Position numbers and translations under genes: made by a program. Shown piece after piece: positions 58 to 39,826 of a stretch of 49,074 bases of DNA; the stretch's first letter is position 1, and each line of letters opens with the position of its first letter. The DNA is from an uncultured bacterium (GTDB lineage: Bacteria > Schekmanbacteria > GWA2-38-11 > J061). The notes under the pieces are model-generated. The model did not search any database, had not been told where the DNA came from, and worked only from the letters and a program-made list of their open reading frames with translations. Location: contig CAZJVM010000014.1 in NCBI GenBank assembly GCA_964549305.1, positions 1-49,074 of the forward strand. Reading direction: 5' to 3'.

Positions 58-356
58 AAGGGGCTTTCTTTAAGCGATGTGTTACTTTTTTTTAAGAAAG
101 CGATTTGATTGTTTTGAAGAAAATAACTTTTTTTCAAAAGGATATTTTAGCAGACAAAACCTGCCTTTTTTACTTTTCAGATAAAAAAGGTAGGATATTC
201 TCCCCTTTTTTTCTCTTTTTTTTCCAAAAAATACCTCTTTTATTATTGTTATTACTGACGATTGCAAGTTGTCTTTTTTCAATTATTATGATTTATTTAT
301 TCTGGACAAGAGAGTTTCTTTATACGTTGATATTTAATACAAAAATGATTTTGAAG

Positions 357-1391
357 ATGAAAAAAAGCTATTTTACAACAATTGGAATTATGTTGTTTTT
401 CTGCCTGTCAACTTTCTGCTACGCGGGAGATTTTCACAGGTTTTCAACTCTCGTCTGCTCAGATTGCCACGTAATGCACGGCTCAAAATCGCATCAATAT
501 GACGGCAGTTCTACTCCCGATACCTCTATCGGAGGACTTGCCCCTTACAGTATGCTTTTGAAGAATAACGAAAATGAACTCTGTCTTTCCTGTCATGACG
601 GAAAAGCCAACAACCCCGATGTGAGAGGCGGAAATACGAATAGCTACATAAGGGCGGCAGGAGCGATTAATGTTTTGGGAGATTCCGGCACTTATGCTGA
701 AAACAAGGGGCATACGCTTGGAATCACGACGCCTCCTCCCGGAGGCATGTGGTCGGGAAACTCGGCGGGCGGGCTTAAATGCAGTCATTGCCACGATGTA
801 CATGGAAACAAATTTTACAGGAATTTAACCAAAAGTCCGGGAAATGCAACAGGAAAAAAAGTAACCTATTCAAAGGGAAGCGGATACAGCGGTACAAAGG
901 CAATTCAGCAGATATCCTCTTCACCTTTGAGCACTCATTACGCGGCGAGCAATATTTTCTACAGGCAGACCACTGTGGGTACTACCGATGACGGACTTTC
1001 AGAGTGGTGTTCCGGATGTCACGACAATATTCACGGTCAGGGAGGAAACGTTAATATGGGTGGTTCGGCATCGGGAGATACGGCATCCGCGGGCGATGAG
1101 TGGTTGAGGCATCCCACGAGAGATGTGACAATGTCCGAAGGGTCAAACAACAAACACATTGACTCGACGCACTGGTTTTCATCTCTTTCATCAAGGGTGC
1201 CTGTTGTTTCACCGTCGGGAGTCATACCGGGCACCTCAACCGGAAGCGACAATGAAGTATTTTGCGGTTCCTGCCACAAGGCGCACGGTTCAGACCAGAA
1301 ATTCGGACTTTTATATGATAATGATTCCACATCGGCAAGAGAAGACGGGTCATCGATGCTTCAGACCTGCCAGCAATGCCATTACAAATAG
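357..1391 (+). CDS. OmcS-like hexaheme c-type cytochrome (putative nanowire subunit)
   Basis: Signal peptide MKKSYF...CYA. Six CxxCH motifs (CSDCH, CLSCH, CSHCH, CSGCH, CGSCH, CQQCH). OmcS-type motifs in order: FH-x6-CxxCHxMH, KGH, PGG, CHDxHG, YRxL, GLSEWCxxCHxxIH, LRHP, CxSCHxAH, C-terminal CxxCH. Start moved from the track's TTG 105 to ATG 357 (345 also possible). Confidence 0.85.
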   Translation: MKKSYFTTIGIMLFFCLSTFCYAGDFHRFSTLVCSDCHVMHGSKSHQYDGSSTPDTSIGGLAPYSMLLKNNENELCLSCHDGKANNPDVRGGNTNSYIRAAGAINVLGDSGTYAENKGHTLGITTPPPGGMWSGNSAGGLKCSHCHDVHGNKFYRNLTKSPGNATGKKVTYSKGSGYSGTKAIQQISSSPLSTHYAASNIFYRQTTVGTTDDGLSEWCSGCHDNIHGQGGNVNMGGSASGDTASAGDEWLRHPTRDVTMSEGSNNKHIDSTHWFSSLSSRVPVVSPSGVIPGTSTGSDNEVFCGSCHKAHGSDQKFGLLYDNDSTSAREDGSSMLQTCQQCHYK

Positions 1392-1397
1392 AAATTT

Positions 1398-2867
1398 ATG
1401 ATAAAGCAGGAAAAAAAGAAAATGATTCAAAAAATATTTTATAGAAACAAAAGATTGCTTTCCATAAGCTTTATTGCTTTAGCGGCGTTTATTGCGGGAG
1501 CATCCTTTTCGGCTTACGCAGGAGGAGTTTATACGCAGACAAAGCACGGCGATTCCGGAAGCGGTGTCCTCAGGGACAGCAACATTCCAAAGGCAGACTG
1601 CAGGCAGTGCCACGATGAGCACAATGCGGGCGGTATAGCAAATACTTATGCCCTCTTCACAGCAAACACAAACGCGCTTTGCTTTACTACATCAGGCGCA
1701 AGTCCTTGCCACAATTCCGCAAGCGCGCTTGGGTTATTTCAGGGCTCAACAAAATACGGAGATTCTTCGCACGCCACGGATTCGCAGACTCTTTGGCCGG
1801 GACCCGACCCTGCCGCAAGGTCCGCGGGAGACAGTGGAAAGTGTGTTAACTGCCACTCCCCGCACGGTTATGAGGATGGAAGCGGACTTATACCCTCACA
1901 AAGCGTAAAAAGAGAGGAAAGTCTTTGCCTTACCTGCCACGATTCAAACGGGCCCGCTTCAACAGATATTCAGACTGATATTACTAAAACTTACAGACAT
2001 CCGGCGACCAATTACAACGGCAGGCATTCTCAGGATGAGGGAGGTACTTCGTCAAATTACGGAACGACTCCCACGAACAACAGACACGCGGAATGTGTTG
2101 ATTGCCACAACCCGCATATAGCTGCAGTTGATTCGCCGGCGCCCACTGCCCCCACGATGCCCCTTTCATTAAAAGGTGTGGGGCGAATAAAGGTAAGCAA
2201 CGGGTCGGCAGGTAATCCGCCATCATTTACCTATGCTTCACCTTCTAATACTTCAACCCCTTTAAGGGAATATCAAATATGCTTTAAATGCCACTCCTCG
2301 TGGACTACTCAGCCATCGGGACAGCCGGATTTATCAGTGGCATTCAACACAAACAATCTTTCTTATCACCCGGTAGAGGGTCAGGGGAAGAATCTTAATA
2401 TAAATCCCAATGCCTTTGTGAACGGATGGTCAGACACTGATAAAATGTACTGTTCAGATTGTCACGGAAGCGACAGCGGTACTGTCAACGGACCGCACGG
2501 CTCTACATATAATTTTATCCTTAAAAATAATTATGTTCAAAGTTCAGGCAGCAGAACTATGTCTTCAAACGAGATATGTTTCAACTGCCATCGCTATGAT
2601 ACTTATGCGAATGACAATGCAAGTAAAACTGTTAAAAAGTACAGCCGTTTTAAAGAACACGACAAGCACGTGGCAAAAGAAAAATTTCCCTGTTATACGT
2701 GCCACGACAGCCACGGCTCGACAACAGATGCCCACCTCATAGTAATAGGAAGAAACCCCGGTCCCGCAGATTATCAGGAATATTCGAACGGCGGAAACTG
2801 TAAGGCAAACGGGGGGCAATGCCACGATGGCAAATATGAAAACTACGATGTTGAATATCCAAGATAA
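1398..2867 (+). CDS. Secreted multiheme cytochrome c (8 CxxCH plus CX8CH and CX6CH)
   Basis: Signal peptide ending AYA. Eight canonical motifs plus CFTTSGASPCH and CKANGGQCH. Ser/Thr/Gly/Asn-rich. Alternative start at 1422. Confidence 0.9.
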   Translation: MIKQEKKKMIQKIFYRNKRLLSISFIALAAFIAGASFSAYAGGVYTQTKHGDSGSGVLRDSNIPKADCRQCHDEHNAGGIANTYALFTANTNALCFTTSGASPCHNSASALGLFQGSTKYGDSSHATDSQTLWPGPDPAARSAGDSGKCVNCHSPHGYEDGSGLIPSQSVKREESLCLTCHDSNGPASTDIQTDITKTYRHPATNYNGRHSQDEGGTSSNYGTTPTNNRHAECVDCHNPHIAAVDSPAPTAPTMPLSLKGVGRIKVSNGSAGNPPSFTYASPSNTSTPLREYQICFKCHSSWTTQPSGQPDLSVAFNTNNLSYHPVEGQGKNLNINPNAFVNGWSDTDKMYCSDCHGSDSGTVNGPHGSTYNFILKNNYVQSSGSRTMSSNEICFNCHRYDTYANDNASKTVKKYSRFKEHDKHVAKEKFPCYTCHDSHGSTTDAHLIVIGRNPGPADYQEYSNGGNCKANGGQCHDGKYENYDVEYPR

Positions 2868-4320
2868 AACAAAAGATAAACTCACACATCTTCCAATAAT
2901 TCTACTTATTGCCGGATTTTTCCTTTGTAATTTACTTTCCTGCGAACAATTGATTACGGCAGTGAAGGAGACTCAGAATAAAAGCAGGACAAACAGAGAT
3001 GCAGGCAAGATAGTTCTCTATTTTAACGGTGCTGAAAAAACTTCGATCAACCTTACTATGACAATTGAAGGTGTAAAGGTAAAGTCTGACCGTGATGAAT
3101 GGAAGGATATAAACATTCCACAGCTTGAAATAAATTCAATAAAAACTACGGGAAAGCAGGTTCGTCTCGGTGAGATTTTTATGGAGTCGGGAAAATATAA
3201 AGGTGTTGAAGTTACAGTTTCTGAAGCAAAGATGATTGAGGATGGAAAGGAAAAAGAGCTTCTTGATGTGGATGAGAAAAAGCAGGTCTTCATTCCTTTT
3301 GAATTTAATGTTCTGCCTGAGATGAACACTCCTCTTTTTATTCACTGGGATCCTGTAAAATCGGTAAAGGTCAATTATATTTTTGAGCCCATTTTCAAGG
3401 TTTCCACCAAGAAATTTGAAGTTAGGGGTGTTATGGCTTATGTGTCAAATGAAGGGTCCGGCAATATTTCACTAATTGACAGGTCGTCAAGAAGGGTCGT
3501 TTCCGTAATAGAGGTTGAATCCGCTCCCAAGGGAATGGTTGCAACTCCCGACGGAACAAGGATTTTTGTGGCGAATTCCGGCTCTGACAGCATATCGGTT
3601 ATTGATACCAACTCAAACAGGGTGCTTCAGCACATAAACCTTGAATCAGGGTCAGGACCCGAAGAAATAGCGATACTTCCCGACGGAAGCAAGCTATACA
3701 CGGCAAATTACAGGAGCAATTCCGTATCCGTTGTCGATGCGCGCAGTTTTCAACTTTTAAGGACAATCGGAGTTGGTGTTTCTCCCGTTGCCCTCGATGT
3801 TGACAGAAGGGGAAGAAGGGTTTATGTGGCAAACAGCAGGTCAAACGATGTAAGCGTGATTGATGTCCTAAGGGATGCAATTATTGAATCGTCCATCTCT
3901 GTCGATTCATCTCCGAAGGACATTAAAGTTGACCGAGATGACGGCAGAGTCTATGTTGCCTGCTATAATTCAAATAATGTCGATATAATTTCTCCTTCCT
4001 CACTGACTGTGGAAAAAAGACTTAATACGGGAAATTCTGTTGTCGCGATTACCGAAGACAGGAGAAGACCCTCGATAATATATTTTTTTCAGCAGTATCC
4101 TGACAGGATTGTGCAGTTTGACACTATTTCAAACTTTGCTATTCATACTTTGCCTGTAAGGGGAGTTGTGAGAAATATAGAAATAGATGAGGACAGAGGC
4201 AAGATTTATGCCGTGATGCAGAATGATAATGAGGTTGCGGTAATCAATAAGCTTTCAAAAATTGTAGAATGGAAGGCGGATGTGGGCAGGAAACCTTATG
4301 ATATTGTCATTTTAAGATGA
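2848..4320 (+). CDS. Lipoprotein with N-terminal DUF4382-like domain and YVTN-type beta-propeller (OscD-like)
   Basis: Lipobox LLSC. Repeated blades YVSNEGSGNISLID, FVANSGSDSISVID, YTANYRSNSVSVVD, YVANSRSNDVSVID. Start uncertain (2827, 2848 or 2851). Confidence 0.8.
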   Translation: MLNIQDKTKDKLTHLPIILLIAGFFLCNLLSCEQLITAVKETQNKSRTNRDAGKIVLYFNGAEKTSINLTMTIEGVKVKSDRDEWKDINIPQLEINSIKTTGKQVRLGEIFMESGKYKGVEVTVSEAKMIEDGKEKELLDVDEKKQVFIPFEFNVLPEMNTPLFIHWDPVKSVKVNYIFEPIFKVSTKKFEVRGVMAYVSNEGSGNISLIDRSSRRVVSVIEVESAPKGMVATPDGTRIFVANSGSDSISVIDTNSNRVLQHINLESGSGPEEIAILPDGSKLYTANYRSNSVSVVDARSFQLLRTIGVGVSPVALDVDRRGRRVYVANSRSNDVSVIDVLRDAIIESSISVDSSPKDIKVDRDDGRVYVACYNSNNVDIISPSSLTVEKRLNTGNSVVAITEDRRRPSIIYFFQQYPDRIVQFDTISNFAIHTLPVRGVVRNIEIDEDRGKIYAVMQNDNEVAVINKLSKIVEWKADVGRKPYDIVILR

Positions 4321-8276: not shown

Positions 8277-9950
8277 ATGAAAAAGATATTTTTAATCGCA
8301 CTGCTGACAATGATTATTTTTACCGGTTGCAGAAAACCCTCCTACTGGCTTATGGAAGCTAAAATGGCTGAAGTTAACGGAGACGTGATTACTTTTGAGG
8401 ATATGAAGCGTAGTTTTGAAAAAGGACACGGAGGGCACGGCGCTTTCCTCGAAGACTATCAAATGAACAGGGATTACCTGCAGAAAGTTATCGATAAACA
8501 GCTTCTTGTACAGGAAGGGCTTAGAATAGGGCTTGATAATGATGAAGACATAAAAGGTATTATTGCCGATTCTTATAATTCTAAAATTTCTGAGCTGTTC
8601 TATACTGAGGAAATAGTTAAAAAAGTTGAAGTTTCCGAAGCTGAAATCAAGGAAGCATTCGAGAAAAGCAGAAATCTTTATAAAGTCCTTTATATCCTTG
8701 TAAAGGAGGAAGATGAAGCAAAGAAGGCGATTGAAAGAATCGAGGCAGGAGAGGATTTTGAAAAGGTTGCCGCAGAAGTTTCCATACACGATTCCAAAAA
8801 GCGCGGAGGTAAGCTTGGGTTTATAATGTGGGGCGTTATGGTTAAAGAGGTAGAGGATGTTGTTCTTACAATGAATGAAGGTGAAATGAAAGGGCCTATT
8901 AAAACAAAGGACGGATGGGCAGTAGTGAAGGTCATTGCAGTAGAGCCTCAGGACGAGGTTGAATACGAAAAAGTAAGGGAAGAGCTTAAAAACAAGGTTT
9001 ATAACCGAAAACTTGAGAATTCGAAAATGGAGTATTTTGACAGTGCGAAGAAGAGATATAATGTTGAAATATTCGAATCGAAAATAAATCCTGAACTCTT
9101 TATCGGTGATGAAAATAATGACGAGATGATTCTGGCGTCGGGCGAAGGTTTAAAATTAAGCGTCGCGGATTTGAAAAAACTTATAAACTTCAAGAAACTA
9201 AATAAATTCCCTTATGAGGAAAAAGCTAAAATCGTTAAGGAATTTTTAAACAATTCGGTCGAGAATAAACTTCTTGTTCTTGATGCGGAAAGCAAGGGAT
9301 ATGATAAAAGGGATGAAATTGTAACTTATGTGAGGCGCATAAGAGATTCGCTTATTACAAAAAAACTGCTTGCTACAATTGTTTCAAGAGACCTTGAGGT
9401 GACTGAAGAGGATATTAAATCGTTCTATGATGAACATAAGGATAAATACAGGTTGATTGAGAAAGTTTTTCTCAATGTCATAGTTGTTGACAGTGAAGAG
9501 AAGGCAGAGGAAATAAAAAAGCAGATTGAAGAAGAGGCAGTTGATTTTGCAGAAATTGCAATAAAAGAGTCAAAAGATTCTTCAGGTGTAAACGGAGGAC
9601 AGGTTGGTTGGTTTTCAAGAAAAGAGTTAAGGCCTTCCGTAGTTGATATGATTTTTTCACTGAAGGAGAATAAAATCGGAATTGCTAAAGAAGAAGATGG
9701 AGTTTATATTTTGATGGTTTCAAAGAGGCAGGAGGAAAGACAGCAGGAATTTGATGAAGTTAAACCTAAAGTTAAAAAAGACGCTTACAAGAAAAAATAT
9801 AATGATAACCTCAAAAAATGGACTCAGAAACTTAGAGAAACTGCTGAGATAAACATTCATAATTGGAGTCTTAAGAAAGCGACAAAAGTTTACGTGAAAG
9901 AAAATTATGATAAGAAAGAAAAGATGAAGAAAATGGGGGGTGGGCATTAG
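8277..9950 (+). CDS. SurA/PrsA-like foldase lipoprotein with two PpiC rotamase domains (OscH-like)
   Basis: Lipobox FTGC. Two parvulin signatures: FEKVAAEVS.HDSKKRGGKLG and FAEIAIKESKDSSGVNGGQVGW. Confidence 0.88.
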   Translation: MKKIFLIALLTMIIFTGCRKPSYWLMEAKMAEVNGDVITFEDMKRSFEKGHGGHGAFLEDYQMNRDYLQKVIDKQLLVQEGLRIGLDNDEDIKGIIADSYNSKISELFYTEEIVKKVEVSEAEIKEAFEKSRNLYKVLYILVKEEDEAKKAIERIEAGEDFEKVAAEVSIHDSKKRGGKLGFIMWGVMVKEVEDVVLTMNEGEMKGPIKTKDGWAVVKVIAVEPQDEVEYEKVREELKNKVYNRKLENSKMEYFDSAKKRYNVEIFESKINPELFIGDENNDEMILASGEGLKLSVADLKKLINFKKLNKFPYEEKAKIVKEFLNNSVENKLLVLDAESKGYDKRDEIVTYVRRIRDSLITKKLLATIVSRDLEVTEEDIKSFYDEHKDKYRLIEKVFLNVIVVDSEEKAEEIKKQIEEEAVDFAEIAIKESKDSSGVNGGQVGWFSRKELRPSVVDMIFSLKENKIGIAKEEDGVYILMVSKRQEERQQEFDEVKPKVKKDAYKKKYNDNLKKWTQKLRETAEINIHNWSLKKATKVYVKENYDKKEKMKKMGGGH

Positions 9951-9951
9951 A

Positions 9952-11967
9952 ATGAAAAATAATTTAGAGAAATTTAAAGGAGTTGTTTATTTGATAATAG
10001 TTGTTGCGGGATTTTCACTAATTCTTTCTTCCTGCACCGGAGGCAAGAGGAGGCGGGCAAAGAGGTTTGCTCCGAAGTCCTGCATTGACGCGGGATGCCA
10101 TCCCACAAAACTTGCGGAATATACTGCAAAGCCCTTTGTGCACAGCCCTTTAAATGATAAAAAATGCGAATCCTGCCATAAAAAACACGGGCTTGTAGGT
10201 GCTGTAATTCTTGTAAAGGAAAAAAATGAAGAATTATGTTACTCCTGCCACAGCGAGGAAAATGTAAATTTTAAAGCGAAACAGTATGCCCATAAACCGA
10301 TAAAGGAAGGCGAATGTCTTAAATGTCACACCCCTCACTCAGCGGATAATAAGGCTCTGCTCAAAACTTCGGAGCTTGAATCCTGTTTTCAATGCCACGA
10401 AAAGAGTAATTTCGAGGGAAATGTGAAGCACGAACCTTTAAACAAGTCCTGTCTCGATTGCCATGACCCTCATTCATCGAACAACCTTTACGGATTGAGA
10501 GAGGATACAAAAACTCTTTGTCAGAAATGTCATGATGCTGATAGTGCCAGAATCAAAGACACTCATTACGGGTATTCGCTAAAAGGGACTGATTGTACCA
10601 CCTGTCATACACCTCACGCATCGGATAAGAAAGCTTTGCCGAGAAGGTATTTTCATCCGGCAATGGAATTTAATGATTGCAATGTATGCCATAACGAGAA
10701 AAATTCTTCAGACCCTATAGGAGTGAAAGAAGCACAGCCGGATTTATGCCTGCAGTGCCATTCAACTGATAAGGTTGGCGAATCAAAGAGAATTACCGAT
10801 GAGACCTTTAACAAAAATGTTGTTCATCCTGCCTTTGCCGATGAAAACTGTACTTTCTGCCATTCACCGCACGCAAGTGACTATCCGGGCAGATTTGTGT
10901 CTAAACAGAAGGATGTATGCTTCCAGTGTCACGATGATATACAGGAGTTATACGAAAAGAAATATTCACACCTTAAAATAGAAGATATTGTTTGCAGTGA
11001 CTGCCACGAACCACATGCTTCGGATAACACCTTCAGGCTTCGTGAAGAGGAAAATGAAGTATGCTTTCAGTGTCACGATGACAAAAAGGATATTCTGGAA
11101 AATGCCGGTACCATTCATCCGGGATATGTCGATGAACCTTGCACAACCTGTCACAATCCTCATGGCACCGATTATAAGAGTTTTGTTAAATCCGATTTAA
11201 ATACACTCTGTTTTGAGTGTCACGATACTGAAGGATTTGAAGAAATATTCAAGCATAAACCCGTAAGAGAGGGACAATGTACGGAATGTCACAATCCTCA
11301 CGGAAACGATAACACAACACTTCTCAGGGAATATCCGCCTGACCTGTGTAAAAAGTGCCACAGCAAGCTTTTTGTAAGGATGCAGGGACTTGACCAGCGC
11401 CATCCTCCTTTTGATGATGGAGAGTGCTTGACCTGCCATCTCCCGCACTCGAGCAGGATAAGCGCCAGTCTTTTGTCGGATAAGATGCCGCAGGTATGCG
11501 ACCAGTGTCATGATTTTGTTTCAGAAGGGAATGCGTCAACGAGTTTTCACGAGCCGGTTAAGGAAAGCTGTATCCTCTGCCACGACCCTCACGGGAGTGC
11601 AAACGGCAGACAGCTAAAAACGACAGGAAATGATTTGTGCCTTTCCTGCCATACGGAAAAGAAAGAGCTGATAGAAAATAAAGAGGCAACGATTCATACA
11701 GCGGTTGCAGGTGGTGAATGCCTTGACTGTCATGTGCCTCATTTTTCTGATAATCCCAAACTGCTCTCGGAAAATGTTCCGGCGCTTTGCAGCAATTGCC
11801 ATGATTTTGCCGATGAATATCTCGTTGAAAAACATAGGAATATAGATATAAGTGAAAGCAAGTGTACCGGATGTCATGACCCGCACGGTTCAATGGACAG
11901 AAAACTTTTTAAAGAAAACCAGCACAAACCTTTTGCCGAAAGGTCTTGTGATTCGTGTCACGAATAA
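9952..11967 (+). CDS. 26-heme cytochrome c lipoprotein (25 CxxCH plus one CX4CH; OscI-like)
   Basis: Lipobox LSSC. Motifs counted by hand. Paired-CxxCH repeats of the form H.P....CxxCH.PH...LCxxCH. ATG at 9952 follows the upstream stop directly. Confidence 0.92.
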   Translation: MKNNLEKFKGVVYLIIVVAGFSLILSSCTGGKRRRAKRFAPKSCIDAGCHPTKLAEYTAKPFVHSPLNDKKCESCHKKHGLVGAVILVKEKNEELCYSCHSEENVNFKAKQYAHKPIKEGECLKCHTPHSADNKALLKTSELESCFQCHEKSNFEGNVKHEPLNKSCLDCHDPHSSNNLYGLREDTKTLCQKCHDADSARIKDTHYGYSLKGTDCTTCHTPHASDKKALPRRYFHPAMEFNDCNVCHNEKNSSDPIGVKEAQPDLCLQCHSTDKVGESKRITDETFNKNVVHPAFADENCTFCHSPHASDYPGRFVSKQKDVCFQCHDDIQELYEKKYSHLKIEDIVCSDCHEPHASDNTFRLREEENEVCFQCHDDKKDILENAGTIHPGYVDEPCTTCHNPHGTDYKSFVKSDLNTLCFECHDTEGFEEIFKHKPVREGQCTECHNPHGNDNTTLLREYPPDLCKKCHSKLFVRMQGLDQRHPPFDDGECLTCHLPHSSRISASLLSDKMPQVCDQCHDFVSEGNASTSFHEPVKESCILCHDPHGSANGRQLKTTGNDLCLSCHTEKKELIENKEATIHTAVAGGECLDCHVPHFSDNPKLLSENVPALCSNCHDFADEYLVEKHRNIDISESKCTGCHDPHGSMDRKLFKENQHKPFAERSCDSCHE

Positions 11968-11976
11968 CTTAGGAGA

Positions 11977-13281
11977 ATGATTAAAATAATGGCTTTGCTG
12001 AGGAATAAGAAAATGAAGAAAACGAGAAATGCTTTATCGTATTTGGTGTTGTTGTTGATTCCTTGTATGTTTTTTGTTTTGAGCTCCGCGGATATTTCGC
12101 AGGGAAAAGTGAAACTCAAAAATAAGGGCTCTAAGTTATGTTTTACATGCCATGACAAGATGAAAATAAAACTTAAAGCGAAAAAATATCTGCATAATCC
12201 TGTTAAAAGGGGAGAGTGCGAAAAATGTCACAATCCACATACATCGGTTGACACCAAGCTTCTGAATGTAAAATCTGATGAACTATGCCTGAGTTGCCAC
12301 ACTGAAAAGAAGGCGGAATTTAATGATACGACTGTTCACCCTCCGGTCAGGGAAGGAAATTGTCTTGCTTGTCACGATCCTCATGGGGCGTCAAACAAAT
12401 TTTTTCTCAAAAAAATGGGAAGTGACTTGTGCTTTAATTGTCATGTTGACTTTAAATTAGTGGATCTTTCATCTACACATCCTCCTTTTAAACTTGGACA
12501 GTGCCTTAAGTGCCATAACCCTCATGCTTCAAAAGAAAAATCATTATTGAAAAAAGCGCCGAGAGAACTTTGCCGTTCCTGTCATAATATAGGAAGCAGT
12601 GCACTAAGATCAAAGCACTGGAAAGTTAATCTTAAAGAGGTTAACTGTACTTTTTGTCATGACCCTCACGGCGCGAAGAATTTAAACCTTGTTAAAGATT
12701 ATGTGCATCCGCCTTTTGAAGACCGTGAATGTGATGCCTGTCACTCTAATTTGGCGAAAGACCCGCAGTTGTTTGTCGAAGAGGGGAAAGATTTATGCCT
12801 GCAGTGTCATGGAGAAAAGGAATCAATTTATGATGATAAAGTAATTCATCCTCCTGTTGCTGACGGAGATTGTGTCGCCTGTCATACCCCGCATGCTTCG
12901 AATTATGAAAAATTGCTTGTCAGGGGCGAAAGGGAAATGTGTCTTGATTGTCATACCGAAAAGAGAAGTCAGTTTGTTAACACCAAATATTCACACCCTG
13001 CAGACGCAGGCGGTGGAAAGTGCACAATTTGTCACACTCCTCATTCATCACAGGGCAGATATCTCTTTAAAGGTGAAATCCTCTCTGTTTGTGAAACCTG
13101 CCATAAAACGCAGGGAACATTTACACATCCCGTGGGAGTGGGGATAATTGACCCGAGAGACAAGACTTCACAGGTGACCTGTATTTCCTGCCACGATGTT
13201 CATGGTACTAACTATGAATATTTTCTCAGGGGTGAAAGGAAGAGAGACCTTTGCGTAATGTGTCACCAGAGTGCGGGATAG
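11977..13281 (+). CDS. 16-heme periplasmic cytochrome c (OscJ-like)
   Basis: AGGAG RBS, signal peptide, and 16 CxxCH motifs counted in paired-CxxCH repeats. Confidence 0.92.
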   Translation: MIKIMALLRNKKMKKTRNALSYLVLLLIPCMFFVLSSADISQGKVKLKNKGSKLCFTCHDKMKIKLKAKKYLHNPVKRGECEKCHNPHTSVDTKLLNVKSDELCLSCHTEKKAEFNDTTVHPPVREGNCLACHDPHGASNKFFLKKMGSDLCFNCHVDFKLVDLSSTHPPFKLGQCLKCHNPHASKEKSLLKKAPRELCRSCHNIGSSALRSKHWKVNLKEVNCTFCHDPHGAKNLNLVKDYVHPPFEDRECDACHSNLAKDPQLFVEEGKDLCLQCHGEKESIYDDKVIHPPVADGDCVACHTPHASNYEKLLVRGEREMCLDCHTEKRSQFVNTKYSHPADAGGGKCTICHTPHSSQGRYLFKGEILSVCETCHKTQGTFTHPVGVGIIDPRDKTSQVTCISCHDVHGTNYEYFLRGERKRDLCVMCHQSAG

Positions 13282-13591: not shown

Positions 13592-13607
13592 TGGCACGAT
13601 TATTGCA
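13592..13607 (+). promoter_or_regulatory. Sigma-54 (-24/-12) promoter
   Basis: TGGCACGATTATTGCA matches TGGCACG-N4-TTGCW and lies 57 bp upstream of the PEP-CTERM start codon. Confidence 0.9.
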
Positions 13608-33393: not shown

Positions 33394-33409
33394 TGCAATT
33401 ATTGTGCCA
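33394..33409 (-). promoter_or_regulatory. Sigma-54 (-24/-12) promoter
   Basis: Minus strand reads TGGCACAATAATTGCA, 62 bp upstream of the PEP-CTERM start. Confidence 0.88.
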
Positions 33410-38919: not shown

Positions 38920-39099
38920 GGCAATCCCTCCTCCTTTTTTAGTTTGAGACAAATTAAATTTACTCAATACTAGAAAATCACAGGATTTGAATATGCTTAT
39001 TTTTGCTGAATATTTTAACATTAATGTAAATACTATAAATGTTAAAAGAGTTTGTAAAGTTGTTAAAATCATTCTTTATCTCCTTTGTTGTTTTATATA

Positions 39100-39115: not shown

Positions 39116-39374
39116 ACTTCTTGAAAAAATGAAAAAAATTTTATGGATAAAATAGTTAATTAATTCAAGTGGTTAATTGTTAAGCTTATTTGAAGAGTTT
39201 TTTGAATAATAACAATAATGGAAAGTTTTTTCAATTAAGTGCGTTTTCACACTCTAAATGTGCGACTTTAAATTATGTTCTTTTAATAGATTTGTTTGAA
39301 ATGATATTTATGAATAAGAAATGCTTCATATGAAAATAATAAATACTGCAGAACGAATTGAAATTATTAATATC

Positions 39375-39491
39375 CTAAATATTTTGTTCATCTTCTTCAC
39401 AGTCACTTTTTTCCATGTCTTCATTTTCTTTGCATATGAGAAGTAACATCAAAATGGCCAATATGACTTTTTCAACGCTTTTCATTTCCAT
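39375..39491 (-). CDS. Putative 38-aa small protein downstream of the riboswitch (not in ORF track)
   Basis: GGAG RBS, then MEMKSVEKVILAILMLLLICKENEDMEKSDCEEDEQNI*: a hydrophobic stretch followed by an acidic tail. Confidence 0.5.
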   Translation of the reverse strand: MEMKSVEKVILAILMLLLICKENEDMEKSDCEEDEQNI

Positions 39492-39498
39492 TTTCTCC

Positions 39499-39540
39499 AA
39501 AAAAAAACCTGTTTTCCGGATTACCGAAAAACAGGTTTTT
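39499..39540 (-). terminator. Riboswitch expression-platform terminator
   Basis: Minus strand AAAAACCTGTTTTTCGG-TAAT-CCGGAAAACAGG followed by a T run, directly 3' of the aptamer. Confidence 0.85.
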
Positions 39541-39552
39541 CCCTGATTTTAT

Positions 39553-39637
39553 GTCTTTTCGGCAACCCAGCCATTCTTAAAAAAAGAATCTGTAGTTTTG
39601 CGTCCCTTGTTTTCACAAGGTTTGCCTTTTCGAAGAC
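39553..39637 (-). ncRNA. Cyclic di-GMP-I (GEMM-I) riboswitch aptamer
   Basis: Minus strand GUCUUCGAAAAGGCAAACCUUGUGAAAACAAGGGACGCAAAACUACAGAUUCUUUUUUUAAGAAUGGCUGGGUUGCCGAAAAGAC. It shows GGCAAACC, a GAAA-tetraloop P2, GGGACGCAAA, a 3' GUUGCCGA and a closing P1. Confidence 0.92.
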
Positions 39638-39826
39638 TATTAATAATAACGGCATTGATGCAGAGCATCATTAATTTTTTATTTTTTTTGCTTTTCTTTT
39701 AAAAAGATGTCTCTTTGATTCGTTATGCTGACAATTTTAATGTCTATATTTCGACAAACATAAATGGAGTTTTTTATTATGAAGCAGAAGGCCAATGTAA
39801 AATTAGCAAATTAAAAAATATTCCTT

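Follow-up and report, generated by a model that had tools for sequence, protein, structure and literature searches.

We analysed a stretch of 49,074 nucleotides (nt) from an uncultured bacterium (contig CAZJVM010000014.1; "the window" below means this whole stretch), focusing on a leader RNA encoded on its minus strand ahead of a gene for a six-haem c-type cytochrome. On balance we favour the reading that this leader is a genuine c-di-GMP-I (GEMM-I) riboswitch, expected to respond to cyclic diguanosine monophosphate (c-di-GMP), with a transcriptional OFF platform of the type described for the Cd1 switch of Clostridioides difficile, and that read-through from it probably reaches the cytochrome gene. 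Its class, its OFF layout and the pairing of such riboswitches with cytochromes all have known precedents.

Scanning all 49,074 bases against Rfam 15 (cmscan, gathering threshold) returned a single match, to RF03167 (c-di-GMP-I-GGC). It spans minus-strand positions 39635-39557 and the full model (1-80 of 80), scoring 66.7 bits where the gathering score is 59, with an E value of 1.1e-13. A second member of clan CL00126 also scored above its own threshold and was masked by clan competition, and a more permissive scan of 39300-39800 gave the same RF03167 match, with all others far below threshold. The element therefore has one of the features that we took to define the c-di-GMP-I class, a covariance score within clan CL00126 above the curated gathering score. 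An initial annotation, made from the letters of the window, had proposed a GEMM-I aptamer on the minus strand followed by a terminator and had named an Rfam covariance search as one way to check it. The search places the element in the c-di-GMP-I clan, with RF03167 as best model, and the 66.7-bit match together with the hairpin and run of nine U residues (U9) described below bears the proposal out; its limits, 39499-39637, run exactly from the first base of helix P1 to the last U.

The cmscan alignment and minimum free energy (MFE) folds placed the aptamer at 39637-39553 (minus strand), where three helices surround a junction and the conserved strings GGCAAAC, GGGACGCAAA and GCC are all present. 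In P1, GUCUUCG (39637-39631) pairs with CG..AAGAC (39561-39553), GUCUU facing AAGAC and CG facing CG with an AA bulge between them; taken in isolation this helix is weak, at -1.1 kcal/mol. P2 is capped by a GAAA tetraloop (39614-39611), and P3 is short (39597-39564). For comparison we collected GEMM-like aptamers from plasmids by BLAST, which matched 16 records. Eight were used (H1-H6, H9 and H11), leaving aside H7, H8 and H10, which matched the same 5' part of the query with weaker E values, and H12-H16, which were short matches elsewhere in the query. Rfam assigned six of the eight to RF01051 (69.6-78.1 bits) and two to RF03167 (66.0 and 62.6 bits). When these aptamers were aligned with that of the window, 27 columns were invariant across the nine sequences and the conserved core columns were all intact in the window, which has an 11-column gap in distal P3. 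Its P3 strands there are UCUUU and UAAGAA, where the other aligned aptamers have an internal loop of CUAAG and UAUG that we read as the tetraloop receptor.

The bases of the ligand pocket were then compared column by column. According to excerpts of PMC6140456, the Vc2 aptamer recognises one of the two guanines of c-di-GMP through G20 and pairs the second with C92, G20 is replaced by A in sensors of cyclic GMP-AMP (cGAMP), and wild-type Vc2 binds cGAMP at 10 uM versus picomolar c-di-GMP, G20 going with this discrimination. In the window the G20 equivalent is the G at 39626 (minus strand; AAAAG followed by GCAAACC at 39630-39619), and the initial annotation was right in reading the specificity base before GCAAACC as G and not as the cGAMP-type A. 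Membership of the GEMM-Ib class of 3',3'-cGAMP riboswitches was rejected on this base. The same column holds G in eight of the nine aligned aptamers and A in the one from Ilyobacter. The C92 equivalent, at 39562 (minus strand) in the GC junction before the 3' strand of P1, was located from the cmscan alignment and is invariant in the nine sequences.

The consensus lines of RF01051 and RF03167 agree in having G ahead of GCAAAC and C in the GC junction, and differ at one pocket position (GACGCAAAgCc in RF01051, GACGCGAAgCc in RF03167). At this column, which we take to be that of Vc2 A47, the intercalating adenine, the window carries the ordinary A (39599, minus strand). Judging from the two consensus lines, the names "GGC" and ordinary "GAC" would refer to the first junction base after ACGC. 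Membership of the GGC variant was rejected despite the top score of RF03167, the window reading ACGCAAA and not ACGCGAA. Since all three sequences assigned to RF03167 here (the window and two Bacillaceae plasmid aptamers) lack the defining base of the variant and carry the ordinary A, the label reflects competition between models and not a different pocket, and the short P3, a feature that the RF03167 model shares, is the likely reason why this model outscores RF01051. The initial annotation had called the aptamer canonical, which holds for its diagnostic A and does not hold for its best Rfam model, the GGC variant, or for its short P3 without a recognisable receptor.

Because the pocket bases G39626, A39599 and C39562 are those of the ordinary class, c-di-GMP would be the expected ligand, and not cGAMP. 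We regard as improbable the alternative that the aptamer answers to something other than c-di-GMP alone, be it 3',3'-cGAMP, the two dinucleotides together or whatever the GGC variant binds. That RF03167 and not RF01051 is the top model, that P3 is atypically short and lacks a receptor, and that the omcST riboswitch of Geobacter reportedly answers both cGAMP and c-di-GMP (excerpts of PMC6456294) would all suit such an alternative; the A at the sole pocket column separating the two consensus lines, its presence in every sequence assigned to RF03167 here, and the G at the G20 column speak against it.

Two side observations concern the plasmid aptamers themselves. That of Ilyobacter polytropus plasmid pILYOP01 (L085, 395-470) combines A at the G20 column with a short P3 without receptor columns, a pattern ascribed to variants that sense cGAMP and seen here on a replicon of the Fusobacteriota. 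On plasmids of Mesobacillus (L082, 505-627) and Priestia (L083, 498-629), a c-di-GMP-I aptamer lies directly upstream of a gene for a SinI-family anti-repressor of 40-43 residues, another small open reading frame (ORF) after this riboswitch class.

The aptamer is followed by an intrinsic terminator at 39535-39499 (minus strand), composed of a 12-bp stem with a UAAU loop, CCUGUUUUUCGG / UAAU / CCGGAAAACAGG, at 39535-39508 and of U9 at 39507-39499. The 12-bp stem has a predicted energy of -18.0 kcal/mol, and a 22-bp form with extra A:U and G:U pairs (39545-39498) reaches -29.2 kcal/mol. A consensus terminator scan missed this hairpin, which was detected by a scan for U runs with an upstream hairpin; we attribute the miss to A:U pairs that carry the stem on into the U run. 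The core of the terminator begins at 39535, 17 nt past the end of the aptamer at 39553, and the two share no bases. The whole leader (39645-39490) folds at -51.3 kcal/mol, compared with -28.4 +/- 3.4 kcal/mol for dinucleotide shuffles (z = -6.7; 0 of 200 as stable).

Between these two structures a third can form. A 16-bp antiterminator helix pairs 39570-39555 with 39531-39516 (minus strand), its 5' strand being made of the 3' strand of P3, the GC junction with the C92 equivalent and the 3' strand of P1, and its 3' strand of three parts of the terminator, namely its 5' arm, its loop and the initial 4 nt of its 3' arm. The duplex energy of -23.0 kcal/mol was reached by none of 1000 dinucleotide shuffles of the aptamer segment (mean -10.7, standard deviation 2.7). 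Among the 12 best 23-nt segments of 41000-38000 (minus strand), the best partner of the terminator 5' arm was its own 3' arm, which alone ranked above the antiterminator strand. The pairing of the aptamer 3' strand with the terminator 5' arm and loop had been noticed in the initial annotation, and the helix proves longer than noted there. In the predicted fold a small CAGG/CCUG hairpin stacks on the antiterminator helix; this CAGG-GAAAAA-CCUG element and a following U5 (39545-39532, minus strand) sit within the antiterminator loop, and the U5 could be a pause site that gives the ligand longer to bind.

Folding successive prefixes of the leader gave three regimes. For transcripts ending at 39550-39526 the MFE structure is an aptamer-like fold closed by P1 (-22.1 to -28.6 kcal/mol), for those ending at 39520-39508 it is the antiterminator (-32.7 to -40.6 kcal/mol), and for those that have reached at least the 39502 stage it is P1 together with the terminator (-46.0 to -51.3 kcal/mol). 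The aptamer would be able to fold once about 93 nt of leader had been made. If c-di-GMP were bound while roughly the next 30 nt were being synthesised, it would lock P1, P3 and the junction, the terminator would form and transcription would end at 39499; without ligand, the weak P1 and the base of P3 would yield to the antiterminator and the polymerase would read on. The OFF logic proposed in the initial annotation agrees with this in silico layout, in which the terminator is separate and the antiterminator is drawn from the aptamer 3' strand. Anatomy and energetics alike give the OFF logic good support; which ligand is bound, and in which direction it acts, remain predictions.

The same folds bear on the alternative that the leader works as an ON switch, or that it is a relic with constitutive termination and no regulatory role left, which we hold to be very improbable. 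The global minimum of the full-length leader (-51.3 kcal/mol) is terminator plus aptamer whether ligand is present or not, and therefore a slow polymerase could always terminate. Against this, the terminator does not overlap the aptamer and ligand could not prevent its formation, which excludes a layout of the pilM ON type as described in excerpts of PMC9262584; the 16-bp complementarity would be difficult to account for had an antiterminator not been selected for; and a core with every conserved column intact is not what a relic would lead one to expect.

A transcript reading through the terminator would meet first, 8 nt past the U run, an orphan small ORF of 38 codons, or 36 from its second ATG (39491-39375, minus strand), with GGAG directly after the U run. 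Its product, for which there are two candidate ATGs, would have a hydrophobic N-terminus and an acidic tail. No Pfam family matched it, an exhaustive search of 1.84 billion representatives returned only the ORF itself, and its GC content is 31%, so that it is no more than a candidate gene. On a bolder side reading it would be the direct target of the switch, a new acidic membrane peptide of 36-38 residues. Between this ORF and the cytochrome gene lie 455 nt with 23% GC. A scan for U runs with an upstream hairpin found no other terminator between 39499 and 37873, and therefore read-through from the switch should reach the cytochrome gene, unless Rho intervenes. It would probably cross the AT-rich spacer into that gene (38919-37888, minus strand), and would end at the intrinsic terminator after it (37873-37848, minus strand; an 11-bp stem, then a U run). 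The claim of the initial annotation that the switch lies upstream of an OmcS-like gene stands, no intrinsic terminator being predicted in between; it needs qualifying in that the orphan ORF comes first and the cytochrome start lies 580 nt farther downstream, with promoter-like sites on the way.

Two further features of this region were observed. Ahead of its ATG, the cytochrome's frame runs without a stop for 52 codons, starting from another ATG at 39072 (39072-38920, minus strand); AAGGAG precedes this earlier ATG by 7 nt, and the -12 element of the sigma-54-like site described below precedes it by 28 nt. The other two frames of this segment (25% GC) hold 9 and 4 stops, the chance of finding no stop being 0.008 at intergenic composition, and members of the cytochrome family start at the signal peptide. 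The open frame may be due to chance, to an extension of the N-terminus or to the in-frame fusion of an upstream ORF. At the other end of the leader, just upstream of P1, a 6-bp hairpin (UGAUGC UCU GCAUCA, minus strand) at 39656-39670 is flanked by A/T runs on either side and, by the scan, resembles a terminator on the plus strand; it could belong to the leader or else to a promoter region shared with a divergent gene for a metallo-beta-lactamase-fold protein.

The cytochrome has 343 residues with a signal peptide, six CXXCH motifs and matches to Pfam Paired_CXXCH_1, and belongs to a family of 345 proteins (E 1e-3 or better, among 8000 scored candidates). A profile of 38 members, built from the window protein and 37 of 120 listed relatives, had OmcS (6ef8/6nef) as its sole match in the PDB, with E = 1.2e-12 and coverage of OmcS residues 1-54 and 124-337. 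Five of the six haem motifs align in order within the two significant segments, and the sixth falls in a third segment that is not significant. The histidine of CHTMH after haem motif 1 is invariant in the family. A single-sequence search of the PDB with the cytochrome did not retrieve OmcS at E 1 or better. AlphaFold2 gave a poor model (predicted local distance difference test score 52.8), and a Foldseek search of the PDB with this poor model, which gave no matches, is uninformative. Because of the profile match at E = 1.2e-12, the term "OmcS-like" used in the initial annotation is justified as remote homology, true at the level of profiles and negative in the single-sequence search.

The spacer contains candidate promoters. 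At 39234-39206 (minus strand) a sigma-70-like match scores 10 of 12 (TTGAAA, a 17-nt spacer and TG-TATTAT); there are 14 such matches in the region compared with 5.9 in shuffles, and the call is a consensus match alone. At 39115-39100 (minus strand) a sigma-54-like -24/-12 element, TGGCATAAATTATGCA, follows the TGGCA-N7-TGCA pattern, which occurs three times in the window where 0.29 are expected (0 of 100 shuffles had at least three), each time ahead of a gene on the same strand. It has GG-N10-GC, TGGCA and TGCA and precedes a gene, as we asked of a sigma-54 promoter. Of the three sites it is the least consensus-like, differing at the sixth base and at the base before TGCA. A Pfam scan of the 40 larger ORFs in the window found no sigma-54 activator domain. 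The suggestion in the initial annotation that a sigma-54 promoter downstream could bypass the switch is plausible in view of the motif enrichment, and this promoter would act as a second input to the cytochrome, independent of the switch. The net prediction is that, at high c-di-GMP, a smaller fraction of the mRNA for the cytochrome and the small ORF would originate at the upstream promoter. Control of the cytochrome by the switch is plausible, though shared with the sigma-54-like promoter and the orphan small ORF. The other two sigma-54-like sites, at 13592-13607 (plus strand) and 33394-33409 (minus strand), are nearer to consensus (TGGCAC-N5-TTGCA) and each is followed some 60 nt later by a start codon, in one case that of an ORF without a Pfam family and in the other that of a PEP-CTERM protein.

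To see whether the riboswitch accompanies related cytochromes, we compared 79 loci, about 4 kb around each cytochrome, encoding proteins 36-50% identical to that of the window in other phyla (Planctomycetota, Eisenbacteria, Zixibacteria, Acidobacteriota and other groups; the best is 50% identical). The covariance model used, R1, was built from the window and the eight plasmid aptamers and models just the eight P2 pairs; it gives the window aptamer, itself a training row, 76.1 bits. Apart from two weak matches inside genes of the window (E 3.2 and 9.9), R1 matched nothing else at E 10 or better. A strict regular expression for GEMM likewise matched in none of the 79 loci, and a loose one gave eight matches in eight loci, none with the GEMM core. 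The sigma-54-like motif was found upstream of 3 of the 79 related cytochromes, with ~1 expected (background 17 in 650 kb), and therefore is not a trait of the cytochrome family.

A number of points weigh against the favoured reading. In this comparison R1 detected a GEMM-like element at E 10 or better in none of the 79 loci, and Rfam at the gathering threshold gave no match of any family in the best 18 of them (L001-L018). P3 of the window lacks recognisable tetraloop-receptor columns, which are present in most c-di-GMP-I members, and the absence of the receptor could reduce ligand affinity; the Ilyobacter aptamer is likewise without these columns, yet scores 69.6 bits. The best Rfam model is that of a variant, RF03167, whose ligand is undocumented here. 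The antiterminator state, at -37.5 kcal/mol, lies 17 kcal/mol below the secondary structure of the aptamer (-20.4 kcal/mol), and therefore the switch needs kinetic trapping of the aptamer by its ligand, which by these folds must happen within only ~33 nt of synthesis. The expression platform as proposed is drawn from this one sequence, that of the window. A consensus scan found no sigma-70-like promoter upstream of the aptamer at a score of at least 9 of 12, and the cytochrome start lies 580 nt from the terminator, with sigma-54-like and sigma-70-like sites of its own in between.

Because none of the 79 related loci carries one, the riboswitch is not a trait of this cytochrome family, as judged from distant loci, and the claim of the initial annotation that the linkage between riboswitch and nanowire gene is conserved finds no support among these 36-50% identical cytochromes. 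Close relatives of the cytochrome are proteins 76-81% identical to it, which fall outside the 79-locus comparison; among the matches listed, the nearest named relatives are proteins of Candidatus Schekmanbacteria metagenome-assembled genomes (the cytochrome at 81%; LepA at 86, 78 and 70%).

The strongest challenge to cytochrome control is that the switch is real and of the OFF type, and that it governs the leader and small ORF alone or makes a short terminated RNA, the cytochrome being transcribed from its own promoters. We consider this rather unlikely, though a serious contender. The GGAG and ATG of the small ORF lie within 8 nt of the U run, the usual position of a regulated gene, the cytochrome has ahead of it both the sigma-70-like match at 39234-39206 and one of the three sigma-54-like motifs, enriched as they are and all placed before genes, and related cytochromes do without the riboswitch. 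However, no intrinsic terminator is predicted from 39499 to the cytochrome's own, and the small ORF, with no homologue but itself and 31% GC, may not be a gene. We therefore retain the reading of a c-di-GMP OFF switch whose read-through probably extends into the cytochrome gene. A more ambitious version, that an OmcS-family cytochrome was placed independently under a GEMM-I riboswitch, with ligand and sign reversed relative to Geobacter and with two-input control through sigma-54, we put forward only tentatively.

The neighbourhood offers some context. Two genes from the riboswitch, upstream on the same strand, a gene at 42478-40583 encodes a secretion ATPase of the PilB/MshE type, which carries at its N-terminus the c-di-GMP-binding MshEN motif (NF053729, 57.4 bits, cut-off 38; Pfam MshEN and T2SSE) and at its C-terminus a double zinc ribbon. 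Because this MshEN-bearing ATPase, by its motif a protein receptor for c-di-GMP, is encoded nearby, the organism evidently uses c-di-GMP, as far as its gene content suggests. Elsewhere in the window, at 105-4320 and 9940-13281 on the plus strand, lies a large cluster of multihaem cytochromes, including one protein with 11 Paired_CXXCH stretches, together with a beta-propeller protein, LpoB/CsgG-like lipoproteins and a PpiC-type isomerase; this cluster looks like a gene set for extracellular electron transfer.

Should the switch indeed control the cytochrome, a connection so far documented in Geobacter and its relatives, that of cyclic-dinucleotide riboswitches with cytochromes of extracellular electron transfer, would extend to a candidate phylum seen only in metagenomes. 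Its wiring would be opposite to that of Geobacter, which would fit the picture given for Geobacter in excerpts of PMC6456294, where cGAMP, and not c-di-GMP, promotes particle-associated metal reduction. On the more ambitious version above, control of nanowire-type cytochromes by dinucleotide riboswitches would have arisen more than once, and "high c-di-GMP means less OmcS-type cytochrome" would suggest itself as a general rule of lifestyle switching. In addition, the leader is a compact natural example of a predicted c-di-GMP OFF switch with a receptor-less P3, and a candidate sensor part.

Among known systems the closest in layout is Cd1, from the flagellar operon of C. difficile. As described in excerpts of PMC9262584, in this OFF switch (P-A-T-H) aptamer and terminator coexist and both compete with a transiently stable antiterminator. 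The window switch shares with Cd1 the aptamer class and the G at the G20 column and, as far as those excerpts go, a terminator apart from the aptamer, a transiently stable antiterminator made of the aptamer 3' strand and the terminator 5' strand, and termination as the predicted effect of c-di-GMP. It differs in belonging to another phylum, in its downstream genes, in being known from sequence alone, in a P3 without a recognisable tetraloop receptor and in an interval for ligand binding of ~33 nt, compared with ~60 nt (87-147) given for Cd1 in the same excerpts. The Geobacter pilM ON switch, in which the excerpts describe aptamer and terminator as mutually exclusive, is unlike the window, where the two are compatible.

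With the RF03167 variants the window shares its top-scoring model, at 66.7 bits, and the short P3 without receptor columns of that model, but at the only pocket column that distinguishes this variant from RF01051 it carries A, the variant consensus having G. The cytochrome resembles OmcS of Geobacter sulfurreducens (PDB 6ef8/6nef) in having six CXXCH motifs in the same order (profile E = 1.2e-12), and differs in length, 343 residues including the signal peptide compared with 407 in the OmcS chain of 6ef8.

According to excerpts of PMC6456294, the GEMM-Ib cGAMP riboswitches of Geobacter lie upstream of many cytochrome genes, including pgcA, omcAHG and omcST, and ligand binding favours an antiterminator and turns the genes ON; the statement in the initial annotation that Geobacter omcS-type genes are under cGAMP-sensing GEMM-I switches is confirmed there, with the addition that omcST reportedly responds to c-di-GMP as well. 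Common to these switches and the window is a GEMM-I fold in the leader of a multihaem cytochrome, the OmcS operon being in the Geobacter set described in those excerpts and the window cytochrome a remote relative of OmcS. The Geobacter switches have A at the G20 column, sense cGAMP and turn genes ON with ligand, whereas the window has G and a layout that predicts OFF. The window switch also lies 580 nt from its gene, with a small ORF and a sigma-54-like promoter between them, in an unrelated, Candidatus Schekmanbacteria-like organism. What likens the window to Geobacter is the kind of arrangement and not shared descent.

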